A DNA stretch of 63,390 nucleotides, the filler included, from Reclinomonas americana ATCC 50394 (Eukaryota), in NCBI GenBank assembly GCA_048213135.1. It is 18 parts of 18 records of this genome, joined end to end, with 100 filler letters (N's around TTAATTAATTAA, not from the genome) between each part and the next. Parts side by side here need not be neighbours in the genome. Positions count along the whole stretch, not along the records: positions 60,116 to 61,300 come from AFZH01021509.1; 17 more parts are not named here. The stretch is one strand, 5' to 3'. Each line of letters starts with the position of its first letter. Within the stretch, counting starts at the first letter, position 1. The notes below the pieces were generated by a model, which ran no database searches, was not told the origin of the DNA, and worked only from the letters and a program-made list of their open reading frames with translations. The translations under genes and the position numbers were made by a program. Below are positions 47,259-63,390 of this stretch, in pieces.

Positions 47259-48674
47259 GGTCGCTCTCAGTGGGGGATGAAGAGTGAGCGTGCCTTCATT
47301 GTCCTTGATTGTCACAAGGCGACGTTTTTCGTTTCGGATTTTGTCGGTTGTTTTGTTTGCGTGTGTGTGTGGAGAGCGCGCGTGAGTGAAAAAGTACGCA
47401 AAAACAGCGTCGCACTGTGTGTGTCAATCAGAGTGTGCGCAAAAAAGCAAGGGAGAGACGTCACAGACCGTTGGACAAGTCCTGTGGATTAAACAAGGGG
47501 CTCTCATGGAAGGAGAGGTGCGTGCCCTCACGTGCTGCTGGCTTTTTTGTGTGTTGAAGTGCTCATGTAATGTGCGCGTGCTTTGTTTGTTTGTGTGTGT
47601 GCAGAAGTCTGGCCTGCAGGAGCTCAAGCGGTGAGAATGAGCACTCATATTCATCGTCGTTGGGATGTGGACAAGCATGTTTTTCCTCCACACCTCATGC
47701 ACTCTCATACGTGTGTGTGTGTGCATGCTCTTGTGCTATGCTCGTGCGTGTTGTGTGTGTTGTGTGCGAGAGAGAGCGTCATGGCACACATGGCACGCTG
47801 TTCGTTTTTTTCCAGTTGTTGTTGTTGTTGAACTGTCGCACAAAACACACACGCTCACACAGGCATTCTCTCCTCGTTCTCACACACACGACACACACTC
47901 CTGTCACACTTGTCTTTTTCTTGTTCACTTTTGTTTGTGTTGCTGACATCGCGCACGCACACACAGACTCTTCCCCGACTTCCATGAGCCCGTGATTGTG
48001 GAGGTGTTTGAGCGCAATGGCAACGATGTAGGACGCGCGCGGGCGGAGCTGTCGAGCATGCAAGAGGCGGACGCGGGAGAGGATTCGGACGATGAGCCCG
48101 AGCAGGTGAGCGTGTATGTGCTGACATGAACAACTGCTGTTGTGTTTTGTTCACTGTGTGATGCAGACGAACCAGCTGCAGGGTCCGCGCCCGGCCCAGC
48201 CGATGCCTAAGCAGCCGCAGGTGCCGCCTCCGAATCCCTCGCAGGATGCAGTGGAGGCGGAGCGCGAGGTCCGCGCCACTCGCATGGTGCGTTGACACTC
48301 TCCTTTTCTTCTTCCCGCTCGTGTGCCAGGTTGCTGAAAAAGGTGCACNNNNNNNNNNNNNNNNNNNNNNNNNNNNNNNNNNNNNNNNNNNNTTAATTAA
48401 TTAANNNNNNNNNNNNNNNNNNNNNNNNNNNNNNNNNNNNNNNNNNNNGCAAGAGAGAGAGTCGAGTGATTGAGTGAGTGAGTGAGGAAAAATGTATTGG
48501 CTGTTGTTTTGTGCTACAATTTGGCAGGGGCCGCAGGGGTCTTGTGCGGGGGCTTTTTATTGCTGACGTCACCCAGCAGAGACAACTCGATCGCACTTTA
48601 ATTTTCCGAAAGTTGCTCCTGTTTTTTGCTTTTAGCTGCTTTTGATTCGTAGTTTGTGGTGAGCAAAGAAAGGA

Positions 48675-49486
48675 ATGATGATGCTCGGACAGCTGGCCCA
48701 ACGCTTCTTCCACACCACGGAGCGCACCCTGACGCGCCACGCCCACGATCCCTTTGAGGACTTTAATCGGATGGCCCGCCAGCTCTTCCGCAACATGCCG
48801 TTCATCTGGGACGACGTGTTGCACCCGACCTCGCGCAAGCCGCTGATCGAGAGCGGCAGCAAGAAGGGCTCCGACAGCGCGCTGACTGCGCGCACTGGCG
48901 AGGATGCCATTCCGTCGTTCCTGCCGGCCGTGGACCTCACCGAGACCAAAGATGCGCTGCAAGTGGTGGCAGAGGTGCGAGATTCTACCGTCGGCGCACG
49001 TTGTGCGTGCTCTGTCTAACGATAGTCCTCCAAGCGCAGGTGCCTGGCGTCAAGCAAGAGGATCTCAAGGTGCAACTCGAGGGCGATGTGCTGAGCATCT
49101 CCGGTCAAATGTCGGAGGAGAAGAGCGATGACGACAAGGATAAGAAGTTTCGCGTCCAGATGCACTTGGAGGCTCCGGCTTGTGCTTGACTCACCTCCTT
49201 GTGTGTGCAGGTGGCATCGATGGGAGCGTCGGTACGGAAACTTTTACCGGTCGTTTGTGTTGCCCGAAAACAGTTGCGCACGACGTGTAGTTGGTGATTG
49301 ACACAATGCTGACCTCCTCCTTCGATTACAGCCAAGCGCGACAACATCTCGGCCGAGTACCAGAACGGCGTGCTGAAGGTCACCATCCCCAAGGCAGAGC
49401 CGACCGAGGCCAGCACGAAGACGCGAACCATTGACGTGCAGTCGAGCAACTCGGGCAAGAAGGCCATCCCCGCCGGCGGCGAGTAA
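48675..49486 (+). CDS. Small heat-shock protein (HSP20/alpha-crystallin domain), 4 exons
   Basis: PAVDLTETKDALQVVAE|VPGVKQEDLKVQLEGDVLSISG...WHRWERRYGNFYRSFVLPEN|TKRDNISAEYQNGVLKVTIPK; the splice phases are consistent. Confidence 0.95.
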
Positions 49487-49619
49487 TCGGTGGATCGCTC
49501 AGCTTGTGTACGACACCAATGTACAGAGAAAAACACACATGCAAACGTACGGTACTACGTGCGCTTTCAATGCAGGTCGCGCACAGAAACAAACAAACAC
49601 ACAAACAGGCAAACACCCT

Positions 49620-50725
49620 CTACTTGGACTTGCGACCTTCGGCGCCGGCAGCGACGGCAGCGGCTGGCGCGGCACCCGCAGCAGCGGCGCGGTTGCCACG
49701 AGCCACCTCCTGAGTCTCCTCAGCAGGGCCCTGCTTGCCGATGCGGCCCATAATGTTGCGCATGCCAAAGAACACCACCACCATGATCAGCATGCTCTGT
49801 ACATGTGAATGATTAGTCGACGGCATAACACACACACACACACACGTGTCGGCACCAGCGCGTACGCAACTCCGTACTTCTCGAAGAACGACTTCTCCGG
49901 CAGAATCTTGGTGCACGTCACAATGTAGCCGGTGCTGTGCGGGCCCGAGGCGGCAGCCGGGTGCACCGAGAACGTGAAGGCATTCTGCGAAATCACCAGC
50001 ACCTCGTAGAACGAATCGCCAATCTTGCCACGCGACGTCCACGCGCGATTCGGCAACTGCACCACTGCATGTGAGCGCGCACATAACAGAAAGAAGCAGC
50101 AGCAGCACGAGGACAACTCGCACCTCCTGGAACGAAAAGTTGACGAGATCAGTGAGTCCGAGCTCATCGCCATCATCGTCCTCATCATCGTGGCTGACCA
50201 CCGCCTCCTCCTCATTGTCATCATCATCATCACTGCTGGAGGTCGCCTTCTTCTTGCCAGCAGCAGCAGCAGCGAGCGAGGCACCCGAGGAGGCCTTGAC
50301 ACGCACACTGCCCGACACATCGGAATCGAACTCGACACGCACAAACGTGCGTGCCACCGCCAGCTCATTCGAGTCGTCGTCGAGCACCGAGAGGAACTCG
50401 TTGTAGACGCCGGAGAGAGCGCCGTCGGCGTCCTTGGTCAGCGTGACATTGCCGGCGACCACATCAATCTCCGTGCTCAAGTCGTCCGCAGAGTACCGCG
50501 AGATGTCGACCTTCCAGTCACTTGTGCACAACACACAAGTGTGAGGCGCAAGGGGCGAGCGCGCGCGCGTGCACAAGCAAAACATGTGTGACATTGTTAC
50601 CCTTGCAACGCGTCCTTGAACGGGAATGTTGATGATCCCTCAGCCGCATGCGAGACGCGCCCGCCAAACAGCGCCACCAGCACAGCACACGACACGAGCA
50701 GCGATACAAGGACAACCGCGCGCAT
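49620..50725 (-). CDS. Type I membrane protein (signal peptide, luminal domain, KSFFEKYG + TM, C-terminal RKSK), probably ER-resident
   Basis: Signal peptide MRAVVLVSLLVSCAVLVALFGG. The juxtamembrane EKSFFEKYG resembles the EMC10-type SFFxKY motif, and the C-terminus is basic. Confidence 0.6.
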
Positions 50726-51481
50726 GACAGACAACAAACACAAACACAATCCAATCATCCGACGGAAGATCTTCGCAATCATCAACATCACACACAATGG
50801 CACTCTCTCCTGCGCAAAAGCGCAAGATTTTTTTGTACTGTTTGCTGGCGGCCTCTGTTACGCACAACTCCTTCTCACACTCTCTCTCACACACACACTG
50901 CTTGATTGCTCACCAGTGTGGGGGTGCAGTTGGCCGGGTTGACACTGGGACTGGTGGCCGTGTATTATGCCACCAAGCTGCAGTACATTGGTGAGTCAGT
51001 GGCAACAGAGAGAGAGTGTGTGTGTGACTGACTCTCTTGCACACAGGCGCGCGGATTAGTCTTGTGTTGCAAGCGTGCATGCCGATGAGTTACCCGCTGC
51101 TGTGCATTCTCATTTACTGGAAGCCCGGGACGTGGTCGGTGTGTGTGAAAGAGGAGCTTTCTCTCTCACCTTCCACTACTCATTNNNNNNNNNNNNNNNN
51201 NNNNNNNNNNNNNNNNNNNNNNNNNNNNTTAATTAATTAANNNNNNNNNNNNNNNNNNNNNNNNNNNNNNNNNNNNNNNNNNNNAAACACACAGCCACCT
51301 GCTCACTCTTTGTTTACAGCGCCACTATCCGCTCCCAGTGGCGGTGGCGGCGGCTACGGCACAGTGGATCCTTACTCGTACACGTCGTCGGCCGACAAGC
51401 GCTGACCTAACCAAGCAACCATCGATCCGTCGACTGAGAGACAACTTGAGACTGCGAGCGAGCGAGAGAGAGTGAAAGAAC

Positions 51482-52464
51482 ATGTTGCTGTTGTCTGTGC
51501 GCACGGCGACTCGTCGCGTCCTGGGTGTACGCTGCCTGGCCTCTGCACAGCAGCTGTCTCCTCCTCCATCACCTCCTCCACAATCACCACCACCACCTCC
51601 AGCATCTCGCTGGTCGCGATTCACACGTGTGCTGCGACTCGACGAGGCTCCCAAGTCTGCAGTGGCGCTGGGCTTTGGCGGTCTCATCCCCTTTGCTGCC
51701 ACAGGCCTGGCTGTCACGGTGAGAGAGAAAAGAGAGAGTGAGTGTGCATCAAGATCACTGATGCGCTCGCGCGTGTAGGTGACCGCAGGCGCACCTCTGA
51801 TGGTCAACCTGCAAAGCACATACGCCGCGTGTATCTTGTCGTTCTTGGGCGCAGTGCATTGGGGTGTGCAACTAAGACCCTCGACAACAGCAGCGAGCTC
51901 TGCACCGCCTGTGTTGACTGTGGTGAGGAGAGCTTCTCTCTGTCCTCTCCGACTGTCTCTCTCTCTGCTGATCCTCTGCCTGCGAGAAGACGAGTGCCAA
52001 GCCGGCTGGTGGACACAAGATGATCCCCGGAGCCAACGCACTGAACCGCCTCAGTGAGCAGTACAACTCGGCGGCGTTTCACGAGAGCGACTTGTTCCAC
52101 TACGGTCTTACATACCTCCTTCCTTCCCTTTCCCTCTCACTCATTCTTCTTCCCCCCCTCTCGCGCAGCCTATGGTGTGGCGCCGTCACTGGTGGCCTGG
52201 ACAGCGTTGCAGTTGCCACTGGTGCCGCGACTGGCGCTGCTGATTGGTGGCTTCGCGGCGGCACTGGTGGTGGATCTCATGCAGACGCGAAAGTTCCCGC
52301 CGTGGTACCGCAACATGCGTGTGTTCCTCACCACGGGTGTCGTGCTGTCGCTCGGTGCGCCGCTCATGTTCTTCCTGTGGATCGAGAAACGCATGGATGC
52401 ATACGAGGTGTCGGGCTCCACCGCCGCTGGCGGCGAGTCACTGGTGCCCGCGGTCGACGAGTGA
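51482..52464 (+). CDS. TMEM69: TMEM69 / DUF3429 membrane protein with mitochondrial-type presequence
   Basis: LGFGGLIPF, YAACILSFLGAVHWG, YGVAPSLVAW, PPWYRNMRVFLT; Arg-rich N-terminus lacking acidic residues. Confidence 0.9.
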
Positions 52465-52688
52465 ACAGCGATGCACGCTCTCGGTGTCATTGGTTCACTC
52501 GCTGCTGCTGCACGAGGCGCGGAGGGGAGATAAAGGAAAAGAGTGGGCACCGAAAGCAACAATGACGTCGGGAGCGGCACATAAAAACAAGAAAAAAGCA
52601 ATGAAGGGAGAGACCAGCTAGACCAACAAAACAACACGAAGGAGAAGAACGACAGGACAACTGGGGAGAGAGTGTGTGTCGGCGCCAC

Positions 52689-52811
52689 TTATTCGTGCGA
52701 CATCAGGCGTACCAGCTCAAAGAGAGCGAGGTTGCCGTTGCCACGCAGGTCGAATCTGTGGAAGGCCTCCTGCACCACGGGGCGCGGGATGTCTGCCAGG
52801 CCGATTTCGCG
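52689..52811 (-). CDS. C-terminal EF-hand exon fragment
   Basis: Reverse strand reads REIGLADIPRPVVQEAFHRFDLRGNGNLALFELVRLMSHE*, with EF loop DxxGNGxLxxxE. Confidence 0.7.
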   Translation of the reverse strand, partial: REIGLADIPRPVVQEAFHRFDLRGNGNLALFELVRLMSHE

Positions 52812-52913
52812 GNNNNNNNNNNNNNNNNNNNNNNNNNNNNNNNNNNNNNNNNNNNNTTAATTAATTAANNNNNNNNNNNNNNNNNNNNNNNNNNNNNNNN
52901 NNNNNNNNNNNNG

Positions 52914-54420
52914 GTGGCTCATACGATCGGGACGGCGGCTCGTATGAACGGGACGGTGGCTCGTATGCGCGAGACTGGGGCGGCGGCGGAGGCGATGCTG
53001 TCCTCTCCCCACGCCCGCCACCTCCCTGCTGCAACTGTGCCTGGCCACGTTCACGAGCGCTACGACGCTGCGCATGTGTGGACGTGCGTGGTTAGCACAT
53101 CGAGATGCGACAGGCACACTCATTCGTGATCAGCACTCAACTGTTGGCGCGTCGCGTGACGGCGGCGACAGTGACGACGCGGTGGCTGCCGATGCCGACG
53201 AGGAGCCCTGTGGCGAGCTGCGGCCCCGTCGATAGTCGTGTGCGTCGTCGTCCTCCTCTCCCTCGGCGGCCAGCTCCGCAGCCGACACACCGTACTCTTG
53301 CATCTCGCGCAACAGCTTTTCCCTGGAACGATCGGCCAGCGTGCGTCGCAACTGCGGAATCTTCGGCGACTGCAGCAGGCGGTACACTTGCATGCGCTGA
53401 TCGTGTGTCGACGGCGTGTCGCGACCACTGTGGGAGAGAGAGAGAGCGTTTGAGGTGAGTGGCGACATGCGCACGACCCCCCCATCCCCTTACAAGAGAC
53501 ACTACGCAACTCCGTAATGGCACGGCAGTCGTGGTACGCGGCAACACGATTCAACACCTCCGTCGGGCTAATGTCGTAGATGAGACCGAGAATGACGGCG
53601 GCCGCCACTCCCGTGCGTCCGTGACCACCCCAGCACGACACGTAGATCTTGTGGCCGGAGAAGGCCATCTCCACCACTCTGCTCATGGTGTTGAGGAACT
53701 CGGCGTCGGGCGCCACGTCGTCGTCGTGAATCGGCAAGTGGATAAAGTCAAAGTCGGACTGCGACAAGCGACGCTCGTCCATGATGCTGAGGATGTCTTC
53801 CACGTACGGTGCGCGCATGGCTCCCTTGTTGATCGAGCGCGACTTGCCCGGTTGCAACACGGCTGCGCATATGCTCAGCAGCGGTTCCACACAGCGAGGA
53901 CGGAAGCAACACACACGTACCGGGGAAGCGCGAATCCTCGGGAACCTCCGACTGCAAGCACACAAACACGCCAATGCCCGTGTCGGCGACCAGCGCCACC
54001 AGATCGTCGCGCTTCTCGGCCGGGTAGCTGCCAACGAGAATGTGATTGCGCACAAGCCAGTTGGAGCGCTCGATCGGACCACGCATGTTCTCGTACGCGG
54101 GCGTGCCCTTGCGTGGCAACTCGGGCGGGAACTTGAGCCCGCGACGGAAGCGCGCACGCAAGTCGGCCATGTTACGCGGCGGGCGCGGTGGCGACGGTGG
54201 CGGCGACGGTTCGCGACGCGGCGCAGAGTCACGCGATTGCTGCGGCGGCGGCTGCACAAACTCGCGTGAACCCGACAACTCCTCATCGTCTGCGCACACA
54301 CACACATGTGAGACTCGGCGACCGGCGACGGCGAATGACAATAGTACACACCATAGGCAGACGAGGGCGGCGACGGCGCAAAGTGCGCACGCTTGCGAGC
54401 CGACAGCGGACGACCATCTT
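52914..54420 (-). CDS. Cys-based protein tyrosine/dual-specificity phosphatase, partial
   Basis: NWLVRNHILVGSYP, FIHLPIHDDDV (acid loop), catalytic YVSCWGGHGRTG (CX5R), and SPQT. Confidence 0.88.
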
Positions 54421-55897
54421 CGNNNNNNNNNNNNNNNNNNNNNNNNNNNNNNNNNNNNNNNNNNNNTTAATTAATTAANNNNNNNNNNNNNNNNNNNNNN
54501 NNNNNNNNNNNNNNNNNNNNNNTCACAAACACAATATGTTCACATCCTGCTTCTCATACACACACAAACACCAAGTGAGTGAAACACAAGACTCGCTCAC
54601 TGCACCCCACGACTTGCCCGTCAATCTTTCTTCGATACTTTGGTGAATGCACTTGCTGAATAACTTGTGCAACAGTGTGAGAACACACGAGAGACTCGCA
54701 CACTGCAACCGTCACTTGCCGCCAAATAAGGAGTGGGTTGATAGAGGACATGATGCTCTGTTGTGGTTGAGGTGGAACAAGCGCACATCACACAATCTCT
54801 ACTTTCCAACTCACTGCACGTGTTTTCCTTCGCGCTCGCAAAAAGGGTCCGTCAATATGCTCTGCTACTTTCCGGCAACACAACACACACACACACAATC
54901 TCTCCGTAGTGAGTTGGACACGCGACACGCAGGAGCAACCGGTGACTTGCCCGATCGATTGACACGCCGGCAATAAAGGCGGAAGGGAGGAAGAAAAAAC
55001 TCTAGGAGGAATCATGCGTGCAACACGGAAAACAAAACAGCTGGAGGGTGGGGGATGAACAAAACAAACACGAAGGAAAACAACAACCCATTTTCCATTA
55101 TCAGTTGCCGCCGACAACAACCTGCTGACGACAGAGAGACACACACATCTCAAACGGACACGCAGCAATCAAGCCCGGCAAAAAAGAACACGGAGATTCT
55201 CACTATTCCACTGCTCACTGCTCCTCGCTCCTTCTCCTCCTTGCTTCCGACACGTAGTGGCACGAGAACAATGTAGCCCCCAACTACAGGTTGTGGTGGA
55301 AATGGGCCACGGCCCAACACTGACGATGCAAGGTGACAGAAATAGACCCCGTGGCTGGATGCGATGCCAAGACCCCGGGTGCGCATCTCTCTCCCACACA
55401 ATCTCACTCCGCCTCTTGCTCCCTCCTCCTCCTCCTCCTTGCTGCCCGCCCGAGTCGCTTCACCGAATAGCACGGAGACCAAAGAAACCATGTCCCATCC
55501 ATCTTCTCCCACGGCCATCTCCTCCTCCTCCCTTCGTCCAAACCACCGTCACAACAGCATCACACGCGACGAGACGAAAAAAACACACGCTCTTGCTATG
55601 TCGATAACGCAAATCCTCGCTGCCGACAGGCGTAAACACAGAGTTGCCAACAGTCACCACCGAACTCGAAATCGACTCGCTCTCTCCATCTCAATCACAC
55701 ACACACAGCGCCTTCTGGAATCACCCACACATGTTTCTGCAGACACGGAAAGAAAAAGTCGCCAAACCCTCGCGCGCGAAAGTCGTCGAAAGAAAAAGCG
55801 CCAACCGACAAAACCGCAATCGGACACGCTCCAAATGGAATCGCATTCGACCGTTGAACCCGCCGCGCCAAATTTCTGTCAACCTCCTCCTCCTCCC

Positions 55898-58800
55898 ATG
55901 GCTGCGCCGATCTTGCCTCGACGCCCAGTGATTGCTGGCGACTACGGTGACTCGAGTGGTGGCGGTGGACATGGCGACGATGAGCTGTACGGTGGATTTC
56001 AGGACGAGGAGTATGGAGTTGCGTTGTCTCACTCTCCTCTCAACTCTTGCACACTCTCACACACTCACTCTTGCGGACGCCCTCAGTTTGATTCGTATGG
56101 TGGTGGCGACGAGTACGGTGCGTACACGGGCGTCGGCACGTCGTATGGTGGCGGCTACCCACCAGGGACAGCTGGTTTGTCGTCTCCCTTTCTCTCTCTC
56201 TCGTCCCTCTCCTCTCTTGTCTGTCTCACACTCGGTGTGTGTGTGTGTGTGTGCAGCTCGCATGGGCACCAGTGTTGGCTTCATGCCAGGCACAGCCATG
56301 TACGGTGGTGTGCCGGGCACTGCAGCGCAATTGTACGGCGGTGCTCCGGGTGGAGAGAGTGCACGCCCTGTGACGAGTGTGCGCGCTGCCGGGTACACGT
56401 CGGCAGGGCCAGCCACTGCCGGTGGTCGCCAGATCTTTGATCCCATGAAGAGTTGCGCTCGGTCTTTGCTCTTCCGTCCCCTTCTCTTTCCTGTCTGACG
56501 TCGCGTGTGAGCAGCCAAGGGACCTGCGCCACCGCTGCAGAAGAAGAGCGAGAACGGACCAGAGGACATGGCCATGGAGAAGGAGCGCGAGGTGCAGGAC
56601 TTGTTGGAGCAGAGTGTGCAGGCCAACACTGAGGTGTGTCACGAGCCCATTGATGTGGTGTTCTTGCTCTCGTCATGCTCAACAATGGAGCAGGGCAACT
56701 TCACTCTGGCGTTGGATCAGGCTCGCGAGTGCGGCAAGAAGGAGCGCCAGTTGGTGCGCTTCCGCGAGCAGAAGGAACTGGCGGAGCAAATCAATGTCGA
56801 GTTGACATACGCAGTCGCCTTCAATCTGGCACTGCAGTACGAGGCCAACAGCATGTTCACCGAGGCGCTCAACACGTACTCGTTGATCATCAAGAACCGG
56901 CAGTATCCACAGGCTGGTCGACTGCGCGTGAACATGGGCAATCTGTTCTTCAGACAGGTGTGTTGGTGCACGCGGGTAGGGGTCTTTTGTTTTTCAATGC
57001 GTCTCACTGCTTGCTTTCGTTGCAGCGAAACTACCCCATGGCCATCAAGATGTACCGCATGGCACTCGACCAGATCCCACAAACCTCACGCAATTTGCGC
57101 TTCCGCATCATGAAGAACATTGGCATTGCGTTCACCAAGACGGGCGACTACCAGCAGGCGCTGCAGTCGTTCCAGTCGGTGATGGAGGGTGCACCAGATC
57201 CACAAACAGGTGCCTCTCGTGTCCGGAGTGAGCGCAAGGCTCCTTGTCTCACCACTTGTTCGTCCACAGGCTTCAATCTGCTCTTGTGCTACCTCTGTTT
57301 GGACGATCCCGATCGGATGAAGCGTGGCTTCATGAAGCTCATCACATCCAAAGTCATGCAGTCGCACGCCGAGATTGTGGATCAGCCAGCCGAAGAGGAG
57401 CAGGAGGAGGAGAACATTGAGGACTACGAGGACGACTCGCTCAAGGACCTGATGAAGGAGCGGTACGTGCCTGTGCGAGTGAGACTCACGTGTCAACTGC
57501 ATGGTACAGCTAACTCACCATACACCACCGCAGCATCAAGGCCGCTCAAAAGTACATGCTGATGGGCGCCAAGCTTATTGCGCCAAAGGTGGAAGACAAC
57601 TGGGAGATTGGCTTCGACTTTGTCATTCAGCAATTCCGCGTGGCATCGTCCACCAACCCCATGATGGCCGACCTGGCCACGGAGATGGAGATGCACAAGG
57701 CGGTGACCTACCTCAACCACAAGGAACTGGAAAAGGTCGGTCTTGCTTGTTGCAGTCTGGTCTACATTGCCGCTCACCTTCTCGTTTGCAGGCCATCGAG
57801 TCGCTGAAGGCATTCGAGAAGAAGGACAAGAAGCTGAAGGCCCGCGCTGCTACCAACCTGTCGTACTTGTATCTGCTCGAGAATGACATGCCAAATGCCG
57901 AAAAGTGGGCCAGTTGCGTGCGACACTCGTGTGATACACCCTTCTCACACACTAAATGCAACCTCTCACGCAATACTGCACGGTAGATCTGGCGATTGAG
58001 GCCGATCGGTACAACGCCAAAGCCCTGGTCAACAAGGGCAACGTGCTGTTTGCGCAGCGCAAGTGGGTGGAGGCCAAGGAGTGCTACTCGGAGGCCGTAT
58101 CACTTGAGGCCGATCTTGTGGAGGCTGTGTACAACCTCGGCTTGTGCAACAAGCACCTGGAGCTGTTCAACAAGGCCCTGCACAATTTCAAACTCGTCTA
58201 CAAGCTCATGCCCAGTTCGCTCGACGTGCTCTGGCAAATGGGTGACATGTTGCGTACCACCGCCGCCACACTGCCGCACCCGCTATGCAGCCTGTTTTTT
58301 TTTTGTTTTTGCTGAGAGAGAGAAAAATGATGTCGCAGCTACGATGTCCTGCACACGAAGGAGATGGAGAATTTGTCGGCCGACGAGGTGGATCGTGAGA
58401 ATTTGGAGAGGAGTCTGGTGCGTATACAGAAGAATGCACAGATACAGGCAGGTGACACCACGTGCACGCTGCTCATTTCTGGCGCGCAGGAATACTTTGA
58501 CAAGCTGCATCACCGCGTACCCACTGATCCAGGCGTCCTGGCGCGCCTCGGTCAGCTGCACTGCAAGACCAACGACGAGGCTCAGGCATATCACTTTTTC
58601 GCCGAGGTACGTGACCCACACCTGCACGGCAGTGTGCCACACCACACGCACTCACACTCACTTCTCCGCCGACAGTCGTACCGCTACTTCCCCGTCAACA
58701 TGGACGTCATCTCGTGGCTGGGCGCCTACTACGTCAAGAACGATCTGTTTGAGAAGGCCATTCAGTTCTTTGATCGTGCGGCGCACATTGAGAGCGACAA

Positions 58801-59344
58801 GCCCGAGTGGCAGCTGCTGGTGGCCAGCTGCTACCGACGTATCGGCATGTACCAGCAGGCCAGGGATGTGTACGAGGAGATTCACGCCAAGCACCCAGAC
58901 AATATGGAGTGTTGCGTCCCTGCTCAGTCACAGTGCCGACCTGCGGCCTGCGAGTGCGCTCACGGTGATGTTGGCAGGCTTGAAGTACTTGTACCCGATC
59001 TGCCAGGACCTGGGGTTGCACAAGGAGGCACAGGAGTATCTGACCGCGTTGCATCGACTCGAGGAGCGGCAAAAGGATCCAGCGCGCTTCGCACCGCCAC
59101 CAAATGCCGACAACCCAAAGTCAGCGGCCGCCGCCAGAGGCGCCGACCCGAGCGAGGAGCCGGCACTGAACTCGCCGCGTCGTGCCAAGGAATTTGGCCA
59201 GCAGCCTGCCAGTTGCGCTCACTAATGCTATGTTCCTCTCTCTTGTTAACGTTGACTCACGGTTGTTTCGCAGCAATTGGTGGTGGCCGCGGTGGCGACG
59301 ACGATTGGGGCGACGATGGTCTCGACGATCTTTTGCCCACGTAA
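55898..59344 (+). CDS. IFT88: Intraflagellar transport protein 88 (TPR)
   Basis: DDELYGGF, ARPVTSVRAAGYTS, EALNTYSLIIKNRQYPQAGRLRVNMGN, AIKMYRMALDQIP, ALVNKGN, SYRYFPVNMDVISWLGAYY, WQLLVASCYRR, C-terminal DDLLPT*. The start codon could be at 55835. Confidence 0.97.
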
Positions 59345-59585
59345 TGAGAAGGGGGGTGCAGGGAGCCTTTTTCGATGGCAAAGGAGCACGACAAGAGAAT
59401 GAAGCGTTGAGTATGACGGCGTCCTATCAGTATCGTCCCACACACAAGCCGGCAAGTGAGAGTCCGACTCGAGAGTCCTCATTCGTTGCTCATGGATACA
59501 CCACCGCCACCCACGCCTGTGTCTGTGGACGCGCGTCGTGGTGCGTGCTCACAAAACATTCTGTTTCGCGCCTTATCTAACGAGA

Positions 59586-60015
59586 TGAGCTTGCTTGATG
59601 CGCATGTCAGCATTCTGGACGTGTGTGGGGCGAGGTGATGCAGAGCACGTGCGTGCGGCTGTGCTGAATCAGCCGGGATTGCTCAAAGCCGTGGACGAAA
59701 AGTTGCGTGTGTGGCGCGGCAAGCGTGATTCGATCGACTGTGTGTGCGAGTCTCTCTCTTACCTGGATGGCTGTCTGCACCCAGTGAGGAGAACGTTCTG
59801 TTCCCGTGCATTCGCTCAGGCCACGATGACATTGCGCGAGTTGCGTGCATTGCATGTGTGTCGGGGCTCCACGAGTTGTCTCTATATTCATCACGCTCGT
59901 GTGCAGTTTCTGGCCGACACACAACGCGGCGCCAGTGTGCACCAGCGCAACTCGGATGGCGAAACAGTGTTGCACGGTGTGCCTCTCATGTGGTCTCTGT
60001 TCTCCACGTCGTGCG
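59586..60015 (+). CDS. Ankyrin-repeat protein fragment with an apparent 1-nt frameshift near 59630
   Basis: Exons encode GDAEHVR..LLKAVDE / ENVLFPCIRSGHDDIAR / GASVHQRNSDGETVLH. The frame of ATG 59586 differs from the downstream frame at a GGGG run. Confidence 0.65.
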
Positions 60016-60115
60016 NNNNNNNNNNNNNNNNNNNNNNNNNNNNNNNNNNNNNNNNNNNNTTAATTAATTAANNNNNNNNNNNNNNNNNNNNNNNNNNNNN
60101 NNNNNNNNNNNNNNN

Positions 60116-60323
60116 TGTCGCATTTCACATGCATCGTGTTGCCACCATTCTCGGACTCGATGCAGTCGATGGCGGCTCGTCACACATTGCGAGTGTTCGA
60201 CGATGGCTCCTGCGAGGAGAGGACTCGCGTTCTCACCTCTGGTACGACCAACTCTTTGCTTCTCGGCGCGTTTGGTCGATTCGCAAATCGTCTGCGACAA
60301 GCGGTACGTTTTGTGCGTGCGTG

Positions 60324-60366
<43 letters not shown>

Positions 60367-61239
60367 GAATAGAGAGAGGGGAGAGAGAGAGAAGTTGTTG
60401 TGTTTGTGTTTGTGATTGTGATTGTGTTTGTATGATCACTCATTCTCTGCCACACTCTCGCACCTCAAACAGATTGACAAGATCAACGCGAAGCGCGCCC
60501 TGTTGGGCATCGCCCCCATCGTCATTGTGGAGTGCTCTGAGGCGCACACAACTCGCCTGTGCAGCTGTGGCGAGCCATTTTTCCCGGCCCCTGGCGGTGC
60601 CAAGAAGATGAAGTGCTTGAACACGGCCTGCCCGCTCTTCGATGTCGAAGTGGCCCGCGATGACTCCTCCACGAAGAACATCGCTTGTGTCGCCATTGAG
60701 CGTACATCGGAATCATCACCGCCCGCAGCAGCTGGGAGCGCCGCCATGGAGATTGATTCCTCGCTCCCTCGTCGTCCACTCCCCGTCTCCTTGCCTCTGC
60801 CGAGCGACGCCGATCGACCATTCCCCGACTTCGATTTCTTCTCGCCTCTGGCCATGGATCTGGAGCTGTCTCTGCTGGCCATGGGCGACGCCGATCGACA
60901 ACTGTCACCTGGGTGAGTTATTATCTGTCGAGCGATCTTGCGATGCTGAATAATTCGTTGCGTCTCACTCTTCGTGTGCGCAGTCAGCGGGATGATGCAG
61001 CAGCGAATCAGATGCTGGACGGCCCCATGAGTTCTCCCCCTCCACCGCCACCGCCACCAGCAGCACCAGCGCTAGCTGCAGCATCGGCACGTGCTCCGCC
61101 CCGAAATCGTCGCCAGGGTGGAACTAGCGCTGCAGCATCGGCACGTGCTAGCACTCCGCCCCGACAGGGTGGAAAGCACCCCCGATCTGCTCCGGTCGAA
61201 GGAGCACCGCCGCAAAAGCGGCCGCGGAAGAACAAGTGA
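60116..61239 (+). CDS. Fanzor2/TnpB-like RNA-guided endonuclease, C-terminal part with 2 introns; 5' end in gap
   Basis: Exons 60116-60303, 60473-60912 and 60984-61239 splice in phase to SHFTCIVLPPFSDSMQSMAAR...LTSGTTNSLLLGAFGRFANRLRQAIDKINAKRALLGIAPIVIVECSEAHTTRLCSCGE...KMKCLNTAC...VARDDSSTKNIAC. This matches the Fanzor2 pattern I.lP.F...M / F..rL / E.yTSk.C..CG / C..C / RD.N...NI. Confidence 0.8.
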
Positions 61240-61533
61240 CACACGAGGTGGATGTTGTTGCGGGTGTGATGGATGGCGACGTGATGCAGGCCTGCGCATG
61301 NNNNNNNNNNNNNNNNNNNNNNNNNNNNNNNNNNNNNNNNNNNNTTAATTAATTAANNNNNNNNNNNNNNNNNNNNNNNNNNNNNNNNNNNNNNNNNNNN
61401 TCTTCTTCTTCTTCTTCTTCTTCTTCTTCTTTTTCTTCTTCTTCGCCCTGTGCTGTTCTTCATGTCTCACTTGTCCTCATATCCCTTCCCTTCTTACCAC
61501 GGGCTGCTGATATCCTTCTTCTGCCGCCAACAG

Positions 61534-62709
61534 CGCGAGTACGCGGTAACAGAGCTGCGCAAGACTCGAGAGCAGTACCCGGATCTGGCACCGACGCTGT
61601 GGCACTCGTTCGGCGTCATGTCGGTGCTGCTGCAGGAGATTGTGTCGGTGTATGGCGCGCTGTCACCACCACTGTTGACGCCACACGTGTCGACGCGCGT
61701 GTGCAACGCGCTGGCGCTGCTGCAGTGTGTGGCCTCGCATCAGGAGACGCGTGGCCCGTTCCTGCAGGCCTACATTCCGCTGTACTTGTATCCGTTCCTC
61801 AACACGCCATTCCTCGACAACGCCGCCAAGGCGCGGCCATTCGAGTATCTGCGACTCACCAGCCTGGGTGTGATTGGTGCACTTGTGAAGGTGAAGGAAA
61901 GAGCACCACCACTGCTGGGGGAGTTTACACTGTCACTCATCCTCTTCCACCAGGCCGACGACCAAGACGTGATCAAGTTCCTGTTGTCCACCGAAATCAT
62001 TCCGCTGTGCCTGCGCATCATGGAGAATGGCGGCGACTTGTCAAAAACAGTGGCCACTTTTATTTTGCAAAAGGTGTGTGTTTCTCTCTTGCCGGAGAAG
62101 GGTCTCTTCTCGCCAACGTACTCTTTGACCACACAGGTGCTGATGGTGCCCGCTGGCCTCACGTACATTTGTGCCACACCCGAACGCTTCTACGCCGTCA
62201 ATTCGGTGCTGTCGGAGATGATCAACGAGGCGCCACAGCCGCGTCTGCTCAAGCACATTGTAAGGTGTTACTTCCGGTTGTCGGAGCACGACCGCGCCCG
62301 TGAGGCGTTGCGCCAGGTGTGTGCGAGTGTGTGCACACAGGTGCATGCTGTTTTTGGTATGTGGTCTCACTGCTTGTGTTGCAGGTGTTGCCCGACTCGC
62401 TGCGGTATCGCACTCTGCCTGGTCTGCAAGAGGACGCGTACATGGCACGCTGGCTCGATCAGCTGCTCGCCAATCTCGAACTGCAGCCACTGCAAGTGCC
62501 GCCTGGCGCACCGGTGCGTGCTGCTGCACTTCTCTCTTCCCTTCCTCCTCGCTCGCTCACATCAACCGTTCCCCATTCAGGGCGGTAATCCTTCACAACC
62601 AGGCGCCGCTGGTGGTGCTGGCGGAGCCGGCATGATGATGCGCATGCCAATGCACCAGATGCCACAGCAGCCACCACCACCACAGGGCGGCGGCTACATG
62701 ATGATGTAG
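61534..62709 (+). CDS. CNOT9: CCR4-NOT subunit 9 (Rcd1/Caf40), first exon in gap
   Basis: [92 protein letters not shown]. Confidence 0.97.
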
Positions 62710-62816
62710 CTCATCATGTAGCCCTCACCCCCCACTCAACCACCATACATCACAAATTTCTGTACCAACCTCCCCCTCTCTCTGCAACGAATGAAACGCG
62801 CTGTTGCATTGCAGTC

Positions 62817-63390
62817 TCAGTACATGTTGAATCGCCCCTCAAAGTATCTCGCCACACGCAGCAGCGGATTCCGCCTGCCCAACGCCAAGCAGATCTACAC
62901 GAGAAAGCACGTCAGTCATCATCGCATCCAGCACACACATGCACCTATCACCACGCAACTCCAGTGAAGACCAGCATGAGGATGAACGCAAGGAAGCCGC
63001 CACGCAGTCCACGCACGTAGCCCACAAAGAAGATGAACGCCCACGCAATGATAAAGTACGCCTGCGAGGAGAGAGTGAGCGACTCACACTCTCTGTGTGT
63101 GTGCATGAGAGAGAGAGAGAGAGACGCAACAATGAAAAACGGACTGCTCAAGTCGCGCTCGTGCAGTGAGTTCTGCCAAGAAGTGCTGCGAATCACGTCG
63201 CGTGCGTCGTTGCGGAAGACCACCTCGGATTCCAGTGGATTGTCGCTGACCACATGCAGACTCTCTGCAGGCACAAACTGTTTCGCAGAGAGAGAGAGAG
63301 AGAGTGAGTGAGGGAGAGAGAGAGAGAGGACAGTGCACACCGACACGTACCTTCTTGCGATCGGCACGGTTGCGTGCGTTTGACATGTGT
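62817..63390 (-). CDS. 3' exons of an unknown membrane protein
   Basis: Spliced exons read AYFIIAWAFIFFVGYVRGLRGGFLAFILMLVFTG|ICLALGRRNPLLRVARYFEGRFNMY*, two TM helices. Confidence 0.55.

Follow-up and report, generated by a model that had tools for sequence, protein, structure and literature searches.

Fanzors are the RNA-guided nucleases of eukaryotes, homologues of TnpB in which the RuvC-II glutamate is shifted to a position just before the zinc ribbon. In the portions of Yoon et al. (2023, PMC10711439) drawn on here, their hallmarks are a D-P-G motif at RuvC-I and an alternative glutamate (Ealt) six residues before the zinc finger, the canonical TnpB glutamate lying ~50 residues upstream of the finger, and Fanzors are described by the regular expression ExxxxxxCxxCx(12,18)CxxCx(4,8)D. 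A motif for TnpB and Fanzor proteins, D-X(125,275)-[TS]-[TS]-X-X-[C4 zinc finger]-X(5,50)-RD, is given in the part of Bao & Jurka (2013, PMC3627910) used here, and the capture of introns and acquisition of a nuclear localization signal (NLS) by Fanzors are already published, according to the sections consulted of Jiang et al. (2023, PMC10530073). Here, we analyzed a 63390-base stretch of DNA from Reclinomonas americana ATCC 50394 (assembly GCA_048213135.1), hereafter called the window, in which a contig of 1185 bases (AFZH01021509.1, positions 60116-61300), with a linker at each end, carries a fragment of a Fanzor-like gene. To judge from its sequence, this fragment very probably descends from a TnpB homologue of the Fanzor type and lies in the nuclear genome of a eukaryote, and we consider it reasonably probable that the gene to which it belongs still codes for protein; by analogy, the product would be an RNA-guided RuvC nuclease.

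The original prediction had read an intron-containing Fanzor2 out of positions 60116..61239, and the sequence at these positions was as it had described. When three open reading frames (ORFs) were joined by script across two GT-AG introns, 294 codons were obtained with no internal stop. The joining itself was thus borne out, but the three ORFs do not occupy three frames as had been thought: they occupy two, exons 1 and 3 sharing one (Table 1). Exon 2 is without any possible start codon of its own. We infer the boundaries of intron 1 from its GT-AG ends, the continuity of the frame and the homology found on either side. Intron 2 is plausible from its sequence; the homology does not need it, and the unspliced frame stops at 60914-60916, within the donor site. 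The five motifs listed in the original prediction were found in the order given there across exons 1 and 2, the succession in exon 2 being VECSEAHTTRLCSCG, KCLNTAC and ARDDSSTKNI.

Comparison with TnpB-family proteins supported the homology of the first ~135 residues to the C-terminal half of these proteins, in its Fanzor type, covering the RuvC-II region, the zinc-ribbon/TNB insert and RuvC-III. This homologous core is followed by a low-complexity tail of ~160 residues, for whose exon 3 portion Pfam gives no family match. The tail ends in a basic K-R-P-R-K-N-K cluster which, by its resemblance to the consensus, we take to be NLS-like. An imperfect protein-level duplication was also seen in exon 3 (61076-61160, plus strand), where A-A-A-S-A-R-A...P-P-R..Q-G-G occurs twice; it was unreported by Tandem Repeats Finder at score 30.

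Around the Ealt and the first zinc knuckle, exon 2 reads V-E-C-S-E-A-H-T-T-R-L-C-S-C-G, in which the glutamate E23 (numbered, as are the residues below, in the exon 2 peptide P0002) stands six residues upstream of the first zinc-finger cysteine (E-A-H-T-T-R-L-C). A glutamate just before the finger had been anticipated, and its spacing is that by which the Ealt is defined in the portion of Yoon et al. 2023 (PMC10711439) used here. The canonical RuvC-II strand, located in exon 1, reads I-V-L-P-P-F and holds no glutamate. In alignment A2, which comprises 21 sequences and in which the window protein is 18-28% identical to the comparators, every invariant column was retained by the window protein (E23, R62, D63, and I70), so that the putative catalytic Glu and Asp are indeed kept, as had been claimed; the Asn-Ile of RuvC-III is kept as well. 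The parts that fit the published Fanzor regular expression are ExxxxxxC and the 15-residue spacer. The visible part of the motif of Bao & Jurka agrees with the window protein save for the cysteine spacing, T-T-R-L-C corresponding to [TS]-[TS]-X-X-Cys, and the X(5,50)-RD element to eight residues after the finger followed by R62-D63. The divergence of the motifs was likewise real, with CxC/Cx4C knuckles and DDSS after the RuvC-III arginine.

Comparators were taken from IMG/VR. TnpB loci retrieved via a RuvC-III pattern yielded 106 motif-bearing ORFs, and 16 more loci, partly from giant-virus bins, were retrieved via the Fanzor-type RuvC-I pattern I-D-P-G-V-R-T-F, taken from a published table (PMC10711439); the latter set gave 12 non-redundant C-terminal halves with D-P-G and Ealt. 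Eight full-length comparators with DPG/Ealt were tested, and all eight scored above the PF07282 cut-off, with HTH_OrfB_IS605 detected at E<=0.01 in five. A hidden Markov model (HMM) of the 12 viral DPG/Ealt TnpB homologues gave the spliced core 12.7 bits (P 4.8e-6 per sequence). Apart from the query's own exon-2 entries, which were the only other high scorers, the decoys (675 window ORFs, 2000 shuffles) reached at most 7.9 bits. With hhalign, the same 12 sequences gave a probability of 78.6%, a P value of 1.7e-5 and a score of 37.7 over 95 columns. The alignment began at residue 36 in exon 1, crossed into exon 2 and stopped where the RuvC-III helix ends; in a permissive setting, it reached back to S-H-F-T-C-I-V-L-P-P-F. 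Among controls, the score was 11.9 for the reversed sequence, and 300 shuffles had a maximum of 21.8 and a mean of 12.3 (standard deviation 2.2); the observed score is thus ~11 standard deviations over the shuffles.

The hhalign scores also formed a gradient, from 37.7 with the viral DPG/Ealt (Fanzor2-like) proteins to 28.9 (P 8e-4) with the bacterial and viral-contig Ealt TnpBs and 15.3 (P 0.12) with the canonical-Glu TnpBs. Two separate blocks were recovered as well: against decoys made of the 1196 window ORFs of at least 30 amino acids (minus those overlapping the locus) and 3000 shuffles, the HMM of the Ealt-zinc finger-RuvC-III block ranked exon 2 first at 14.3 bits, and that of the LP.F strand ranked exon 1 second among ~4180 decoys at 4.6 bits. 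In the reciprocal direction, a phmmer search of the peptide against the 2044 ORFs of 123 viral loci placed ORFs with the TnpB RuvC-III motif at all of the top 10 ranks and at 14 of the top 20, whereas such ORFs number only 116 in the set of 2044; the individual E-values were weak, the best being 0.016. In the ESM Atlas, 25 of the 30 clusters nearest to residues 1-80 of exon 2 belonged to the PF07282 set (score 0.93). By the HMM, hhalign, block and reciprocal tests, the resemblance exceeds chance. The highest scores came from Fanzor2-like viral proteins with HTH_OrfB_IS605; with ~135 alignable residues, this is a lead only on the choice between Fanzor2 and Fanzor1.

Several results weigh against this interpretation. 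Introns 1 and 2 are predictions from sequence. The zinc knuckles are irregular (CxC-x15-Cx4C), CxxC being absent from both, and the published Fanzor regular expression is left unmatched by the CxC, by the Cx4C and by the nine residues that precede the catalytic D; three extra residues stand ahead of RD. Neither the RuvC-I D-P-G strand nor the N-terminal HTH/WED/REC lobe was found among the 1196 window ORFs of at least 30 amino acids. The match to PF07282 (Cas12f1-like TNB, formerly OrfB_Zn_ribbon), extending over residues 16-70 of exon 2 and profile positions 17-60, reached 12.2 bits (E 0.21), against a gathering cut-off of 26.3, and on the same Cys-containing stretch it was outscored by the unrelated PF00858 ASC (15.3 bits, E 0.011). 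The profile match foreseen for the spliced peptide was therefore obtained with the DPG/Ealt TnpB profile and not with PF07282. NCBIfam, PHROGs, and the PDB sequences gave nothing relevant for the peptide, a phmmer search with exon 2 as query returned no match at E<=0.001, not even the protein itself, from 1.84 billion cluster representatives, and a word-indexed search of longer proteins gave no match. A broad HMM of 70 TnpBs, mostly with the canonical Glu, left the peptide outside its top 15, the RF..RL block HMM placed it at rank 646 (not significant), and exon 1 alone was not significant in hhalign (score 14.2) and had no family in the ESM Atlas (0.83). Lastly, the comparators were chosen by TnpB motifs, and shuffled decoys lose the clustering of cysteines.

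The apparent absence of the organism and its near relatives from these collections explains why the standard searches were empty, and the poor score on canonical TnpBs agrees with the failure of the broad canonical TnpB HMM. A tblastn search of IMG/VR for relatives confirmed none. Twenty-four public sequencing runs were matched, each carrying just 0.04 of the sampled words of the contig, and we take these shared words to be the (GA)n array. Four short peptide strings had no occurrence in the supplementary tables of PMC10711439, within the first 400 characters of each cell.

Structure models were compatible with the assignment, and only that. An AlphaFold2 model from the single sequence was uninformative, with a predicted local distance difference test (pLDDT) of 52, and the model built with alignment A2 had a pLDDT of 80.7 and the expected helix-ribbon-helix. 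When this second model was compared with the PDB by Foldseek, ranks 1-14 were all Cas12, TnpB-like, or Fanzor chains, the best being Cas12p, Cas12f, TranC, and mimivirus Fanzor2. The likeness to such folds expected in the original prediction was seen to that extent; none of the matches reached E<=0.001, and the result is circular because the rows of A2 were chosen as TnpB relatives.

The composition of the locus resembles that of its surroundings. The GC content at third codon positions (GC3) of the core is 0.72, versus 0.77 in the neighbouring Rcd1 gene, and is close to that of other long ORFs too; both introns are lower in GC than the exons. Across both strands of the window, 210 (GA)8 matches were counted, versus none in 100 shuffles, and the (GA)n microsatellite is a general trait of this genome. 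The GA array in intron 1, which the original prediction had likened to those of host introns, is one of many such arrays in the window. Intron 2 and an Rcd1 intron have the same type of 3' end, TCTCAC...AG. We therefore observed homology to and colinearity with the TnpB family, retention of the invariant residues and a host-like base composition. Residence in a eukaryotic genome is supported because the frame needs GT-AG introns, GC3 and microsatellites are host-like and the neighbouring genes (Rcd1, TPR) are eukaryotic. From a frame that is open over 294 codons at only ~18-28% identity to the nearest relatives, we also infer that the gene still codes for protein and is maintained by selection.

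We propose that the contig holds the 3' part of a nuclear, intron-bearing Fanzor-type gene. The visible order would be the I-V-L-P-P-F strand, helices, the S-E-A-H-T-T strand, a remodelled four-Cys ribbon, the Arg-Asp...Asn-Ile helix, and a disordered tail with an NLS-like end. By analogy with characterised Fanzors, the product may bind a guide RNA made from its own locus and may cut complementary DNA via a single RuvC site, formed by the D of the missing RuvC-I together with E23 and D63.

The main rival to a still-coding gene is a dead or truncated transposon remnant: a Fanzor-carrying transposon that lost its 5' part or is in decay would no longer encode an RNA-guided nuclease, and its frame would be open by chance or because it died recently. 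We judge this possible but rather unlikely. The N-terminal half is nowhere in the window, the zinc knuckles are irregular and the three-residue insertion precedes RD, all of which would fit decay; Cx4C and even the loss of all four Cys occur, however, in viral relatives with open full-length frames that score above the Pfam cut-off. The contig is tiny and has gaps on both sides, as repeats often do, yet 17 gaps interrupt the 63 kb of the window in any case. The 294 open codons with canonical splice sites, the retention of all invariant family positions and the host-like GC3 speak against such a remnant, and a long neutral phase at 18-28% identity would be expected to break the frame. A still-coding gene could, conversely, be more than a nuclease of the usual kind: it might be a single-copy domesticated gene of Fanzor descent, in a line of protists without close sequenced relatives, with a remodelled CxC/Cx4C ribbon and an NLS-bearing disordered tail. 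Domestication had been raised as possible in the original prediction, but this idea is doubtful; if true, it would mean a deep, undescribed branch of Fanzors whose nuclease or RNA-guided DNA-binding activity was co-opted by the host.

The locus could also be an unrelated Cys-containing or disordered host protein with short TnpB-like motifs, an explanation that we find improbable. All single-sequence database searches were negative or sub-threshold and the single-sequence AlphaFold model was uninformative (pLDDT 52); moreover, weak P-values have to be discounted, since a very large scan was sifted by eye to arrive at this finding. A chance resemblance would, however, have to place two blocks in two exons, in the right order and with an in-frame GT-AG intron between them, to score ~11 standard deviations above shuffles in hhalign, to draw only TnpB-type proteins as its top 10 among 2044 natural viral ORFs and to have language-model neighbours from the PF07282 family, and a gradient toward the Ealt/DPG subgroup is not expected from it. 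Contamination, by which a giant-virus or bacterial contig was mis-scaffolded into the eukaryotic assembly, appears extremely improbable. The 1185-base contig is tied to its neighbours through linkers only and the nearest relatives found sit on viral contigs, but its protein is readable only with two spliceosomal-type introns, the second of which ends in TCTCAC...AG as does the neighbouring Rcd1 intron. Furthermore, its (GA)n array is like many others in the window, its GC and GC3 resemble those of the neighbouring host genes, and tblastn found no close viral relative.

Table 1. Positions of the features of the Fanzor-like gene fragment and its surroundings, counted along the window. Residue numbers refer to the exon 2 peptide (P0002).
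Feature	Position	Strand	Remarks
5' linker, 100 bases	60016..60115	.	N44-TTAATTAATTAA-N44; front part of the gene lost here or further out
Exon 1	60118..60303	+	62 codons, no stop back to the contig start; incomplete codon at 60116-60117
I-V-L-P-P-F..S-M beta-strand motif, exon 1	60133-60162	+	At the RuvC-II position
F-G-R-F-A-N-R-L motif, exon 1	60271-60294	+
Predicted intron 1	60304..60472	+	169 nucleotides, GTACGT...AAACAG, phase 0, GC 0.46
(GA)34 repeat, intron 1	60327-60392
(TTGTGT)5.7 repeat, intron 1	60398-60431
Exon 2	60473..60912	+	Core homologous at residues 1-~75, then Pro/Ala/Ser/Asp-rich tail
'Alternative' RuvC-II glutamate (Ealt) codon, E23	60539..60541	+	Invariant column in alignment A2
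Zinc-ribbon (TNB) region	60560..60631	+	Four Cys: C-S-C, 15 residues, C-L-N-T-A-C
RuvC-III motif R-D-D-S-S-T-K-N-I	60656..60682	+	R62, D63, I70 invariant, N69 nearly invariant in A2
Putative intron 2	60913..60983	+	71 nucleotides, GTGAGT...TCTCAC...GCGCAG, phase 2, GC 0.48
Putative exon 3	60984..61239	+	Pro/Ala-rich low-complexity tail, TGA at 61237-61239
Basic K-R-P-R-K-N-K cluster, end of exon 3 tail	61216-61236	+
3' linker, 100 bases	61301..61400	.	Begins 61 bases past the stop codon; cuts off any 3' guide-RNA region or element end
(GA)n microsatellites, examples	1944-2025, 22646-22737, 24968-25049, 60327-60392
Rcd1/CNOT9 gene	61402-62706	+	PF04078, 297 bits; short introns of ~63 nucleotides

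The window consists of 18 contigs with 17 identical 100-base linkers between them, each of the form N44-TTAATTAATTAA-N44 and serving as a six-frame stop spacer (for example 2120-2219, 60016-60115, and 61301-61400). Such a linker is a placeholder that says nothing about the real size of a gap nor, strictly, about the placement of a contig, and the order of genes across linkers depends on scaffolding alone. The assembly gap in which RuvC-I had been supposed to lie is one of these fixed linkers; RuvC-I and the N-terminal lobe are nonetheless absent from the contig, the window protein beginning ~85-95 residues beyond the D-P-G position of the comparators. An ORF of 142 codons that is open into the upstream linker (59589-60014, plus strand) was considered as an N-terminal exon and rejected, as it had no TnpB signal. 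A sub-threshold PKS_DE match (E 0.016) was seen in the same ORF. On the contig, no Rfam family reached its gathering score (four matches, E 0.11-0.8), with only 61 bases present after the stop.

Pfam analysis of the 76 ORFs of at least 100 amino acids in 48450-63390 identified TPR repeats, HSP20, DUF3429, Rcd1, and a domain like those of dual-specificity phosphatases; none of the 76 matched a transposase or a recombinase, the IS607 serine recombinase included. The best database relatives of Rcd1 are 66-67% identical and are spread across oomycetes, algae, and fungi. The neighbours are ordinary genes, but the setting among housekeeping genes that had been described depends on a correct scaffold order. 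A (TCT)n run starts the next contig (61401-61445), and a 433-amino-acid ORF on the minus strand (53123-54421) has matches near the cut-offs to the DSP-PTPase domains PF22784 (PTP-SAK) and PF22785 (polymorphic-toxin-system phosphatase).

Intron-bearing Fanzors are already known as a kind; the gene described here is new, very divergent, and incomplete. Divergent Fanzors widen the known sequence space, here with irregular zinc knuckles and an LP.F strand, and such genes show the extent of adaptation to nuclear genomes in their introns, composition, and basic tails. Pfam, NCBIfam, and the search of 1.84 billion representatives miss this copy, so that, for poorly sampled protists, catalogues built in these ways are likely to list too few Fanzors. 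The value of the fragment is as a lead toward a finished locus.

Among known systems, the Fanzor2 proteins of eukaryotes and giant viruses (Acanthamoeba polyphaga mimivirus L79, PDB 9b0l, and the viral proteins L108-L123 of our set) have their elements in the same order as the window protein. The order common to the viral DPG/Ealt proteins and the window protein is the old RuvC-II strand, the RF..RL helix, the Ealt in E-A-x-T-[ST]-[KR], the zinc ribbon, and RD...NI, and the viral group had the best profile score among the comparator groups. In the PDB, the joint profile A2 matched 9b0l best (78.4 bits), and 9b0l ranked seventh in the Foldseek list (33% identity over 49 columns, E 0.89); both results depend on the comparators chosen. 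The LP.F motif at the old RuvC-II strand, given in the original prediction as part of a succession characteristic of Fanzor2, is real and is shared by the window protein and 6 of the 12 viral comparators, as well as by the Naegleria lovaniensis and Phytophthora cactorum entries considered below; its specificity to Fanzor2 was not supported. The window protein differs from the viral comparators by insertions of 15, 10, and 3 residues and by D-S-S-T after RD, where the viral Fanzor2-like proteins have x-N-A-A, and it is set apart from them by its CxC/Cx4C knuckles, its ~160-residue disordered tail, and its two introns. A Cx4C second knuckle also occurs in viral L111 and L121. In the DPG/Ealt proteins L108, L109, L113, and L123 from IMG/VR, all four zinc-ribbon Cys are lost, yet these proteins score above the PF07282 cut-off; L108, L113, and L123 keep open full-length frames, and the frame of L109 is 273 amino acids long. 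The zinc ribbon thus seems dispensable in part of this viral group.

Within the part of the published material of Yoon et al. (2023, PMC10711439) used here, two proteins of eukaryotic hosts, XP_044552160.1 of Naegleria lovaniensis and KAG6952133.1 of Phytophthora cactorum, have the same succession of motifs as the window protein, as compared by eye only: I/V-L-L-P-S-F....M, R/K-F-K-Q-x-L, E-x-Y-T-[SP]-K-T-C, and RD...NI. The spacers of the window protein are longer than in these entries and its knuckles irregular. The prokaryotic Ealt TnpBs with D-hydrophobic-G (L013-L074 and P0005-P0124, including the Burkholderiales-type 'RNA-guided endonuclease InsQ/TnpB') share with it the position of the Ealt, the T-T that follows, a P-x-G loop between the knuckles, and RD...NI, but their scores (HMM 8.9 bits, hhalign 28.9) are below those of the viral DPG group, they have G-N-V-N in place of LP.F, and they are intron-less proteins of ~350 amino acids. 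The canonical TnpBs (ISDra2, PDB 8exa/8h1j) and Cas12f share with the window protein the superfamily and the TNB/zinc-ribbon insert between RuvC-II and RuvC-III (PF07282), although the similarity of the canonical TnpBs to it was not significant (hhalign 15.3, P 0.12).

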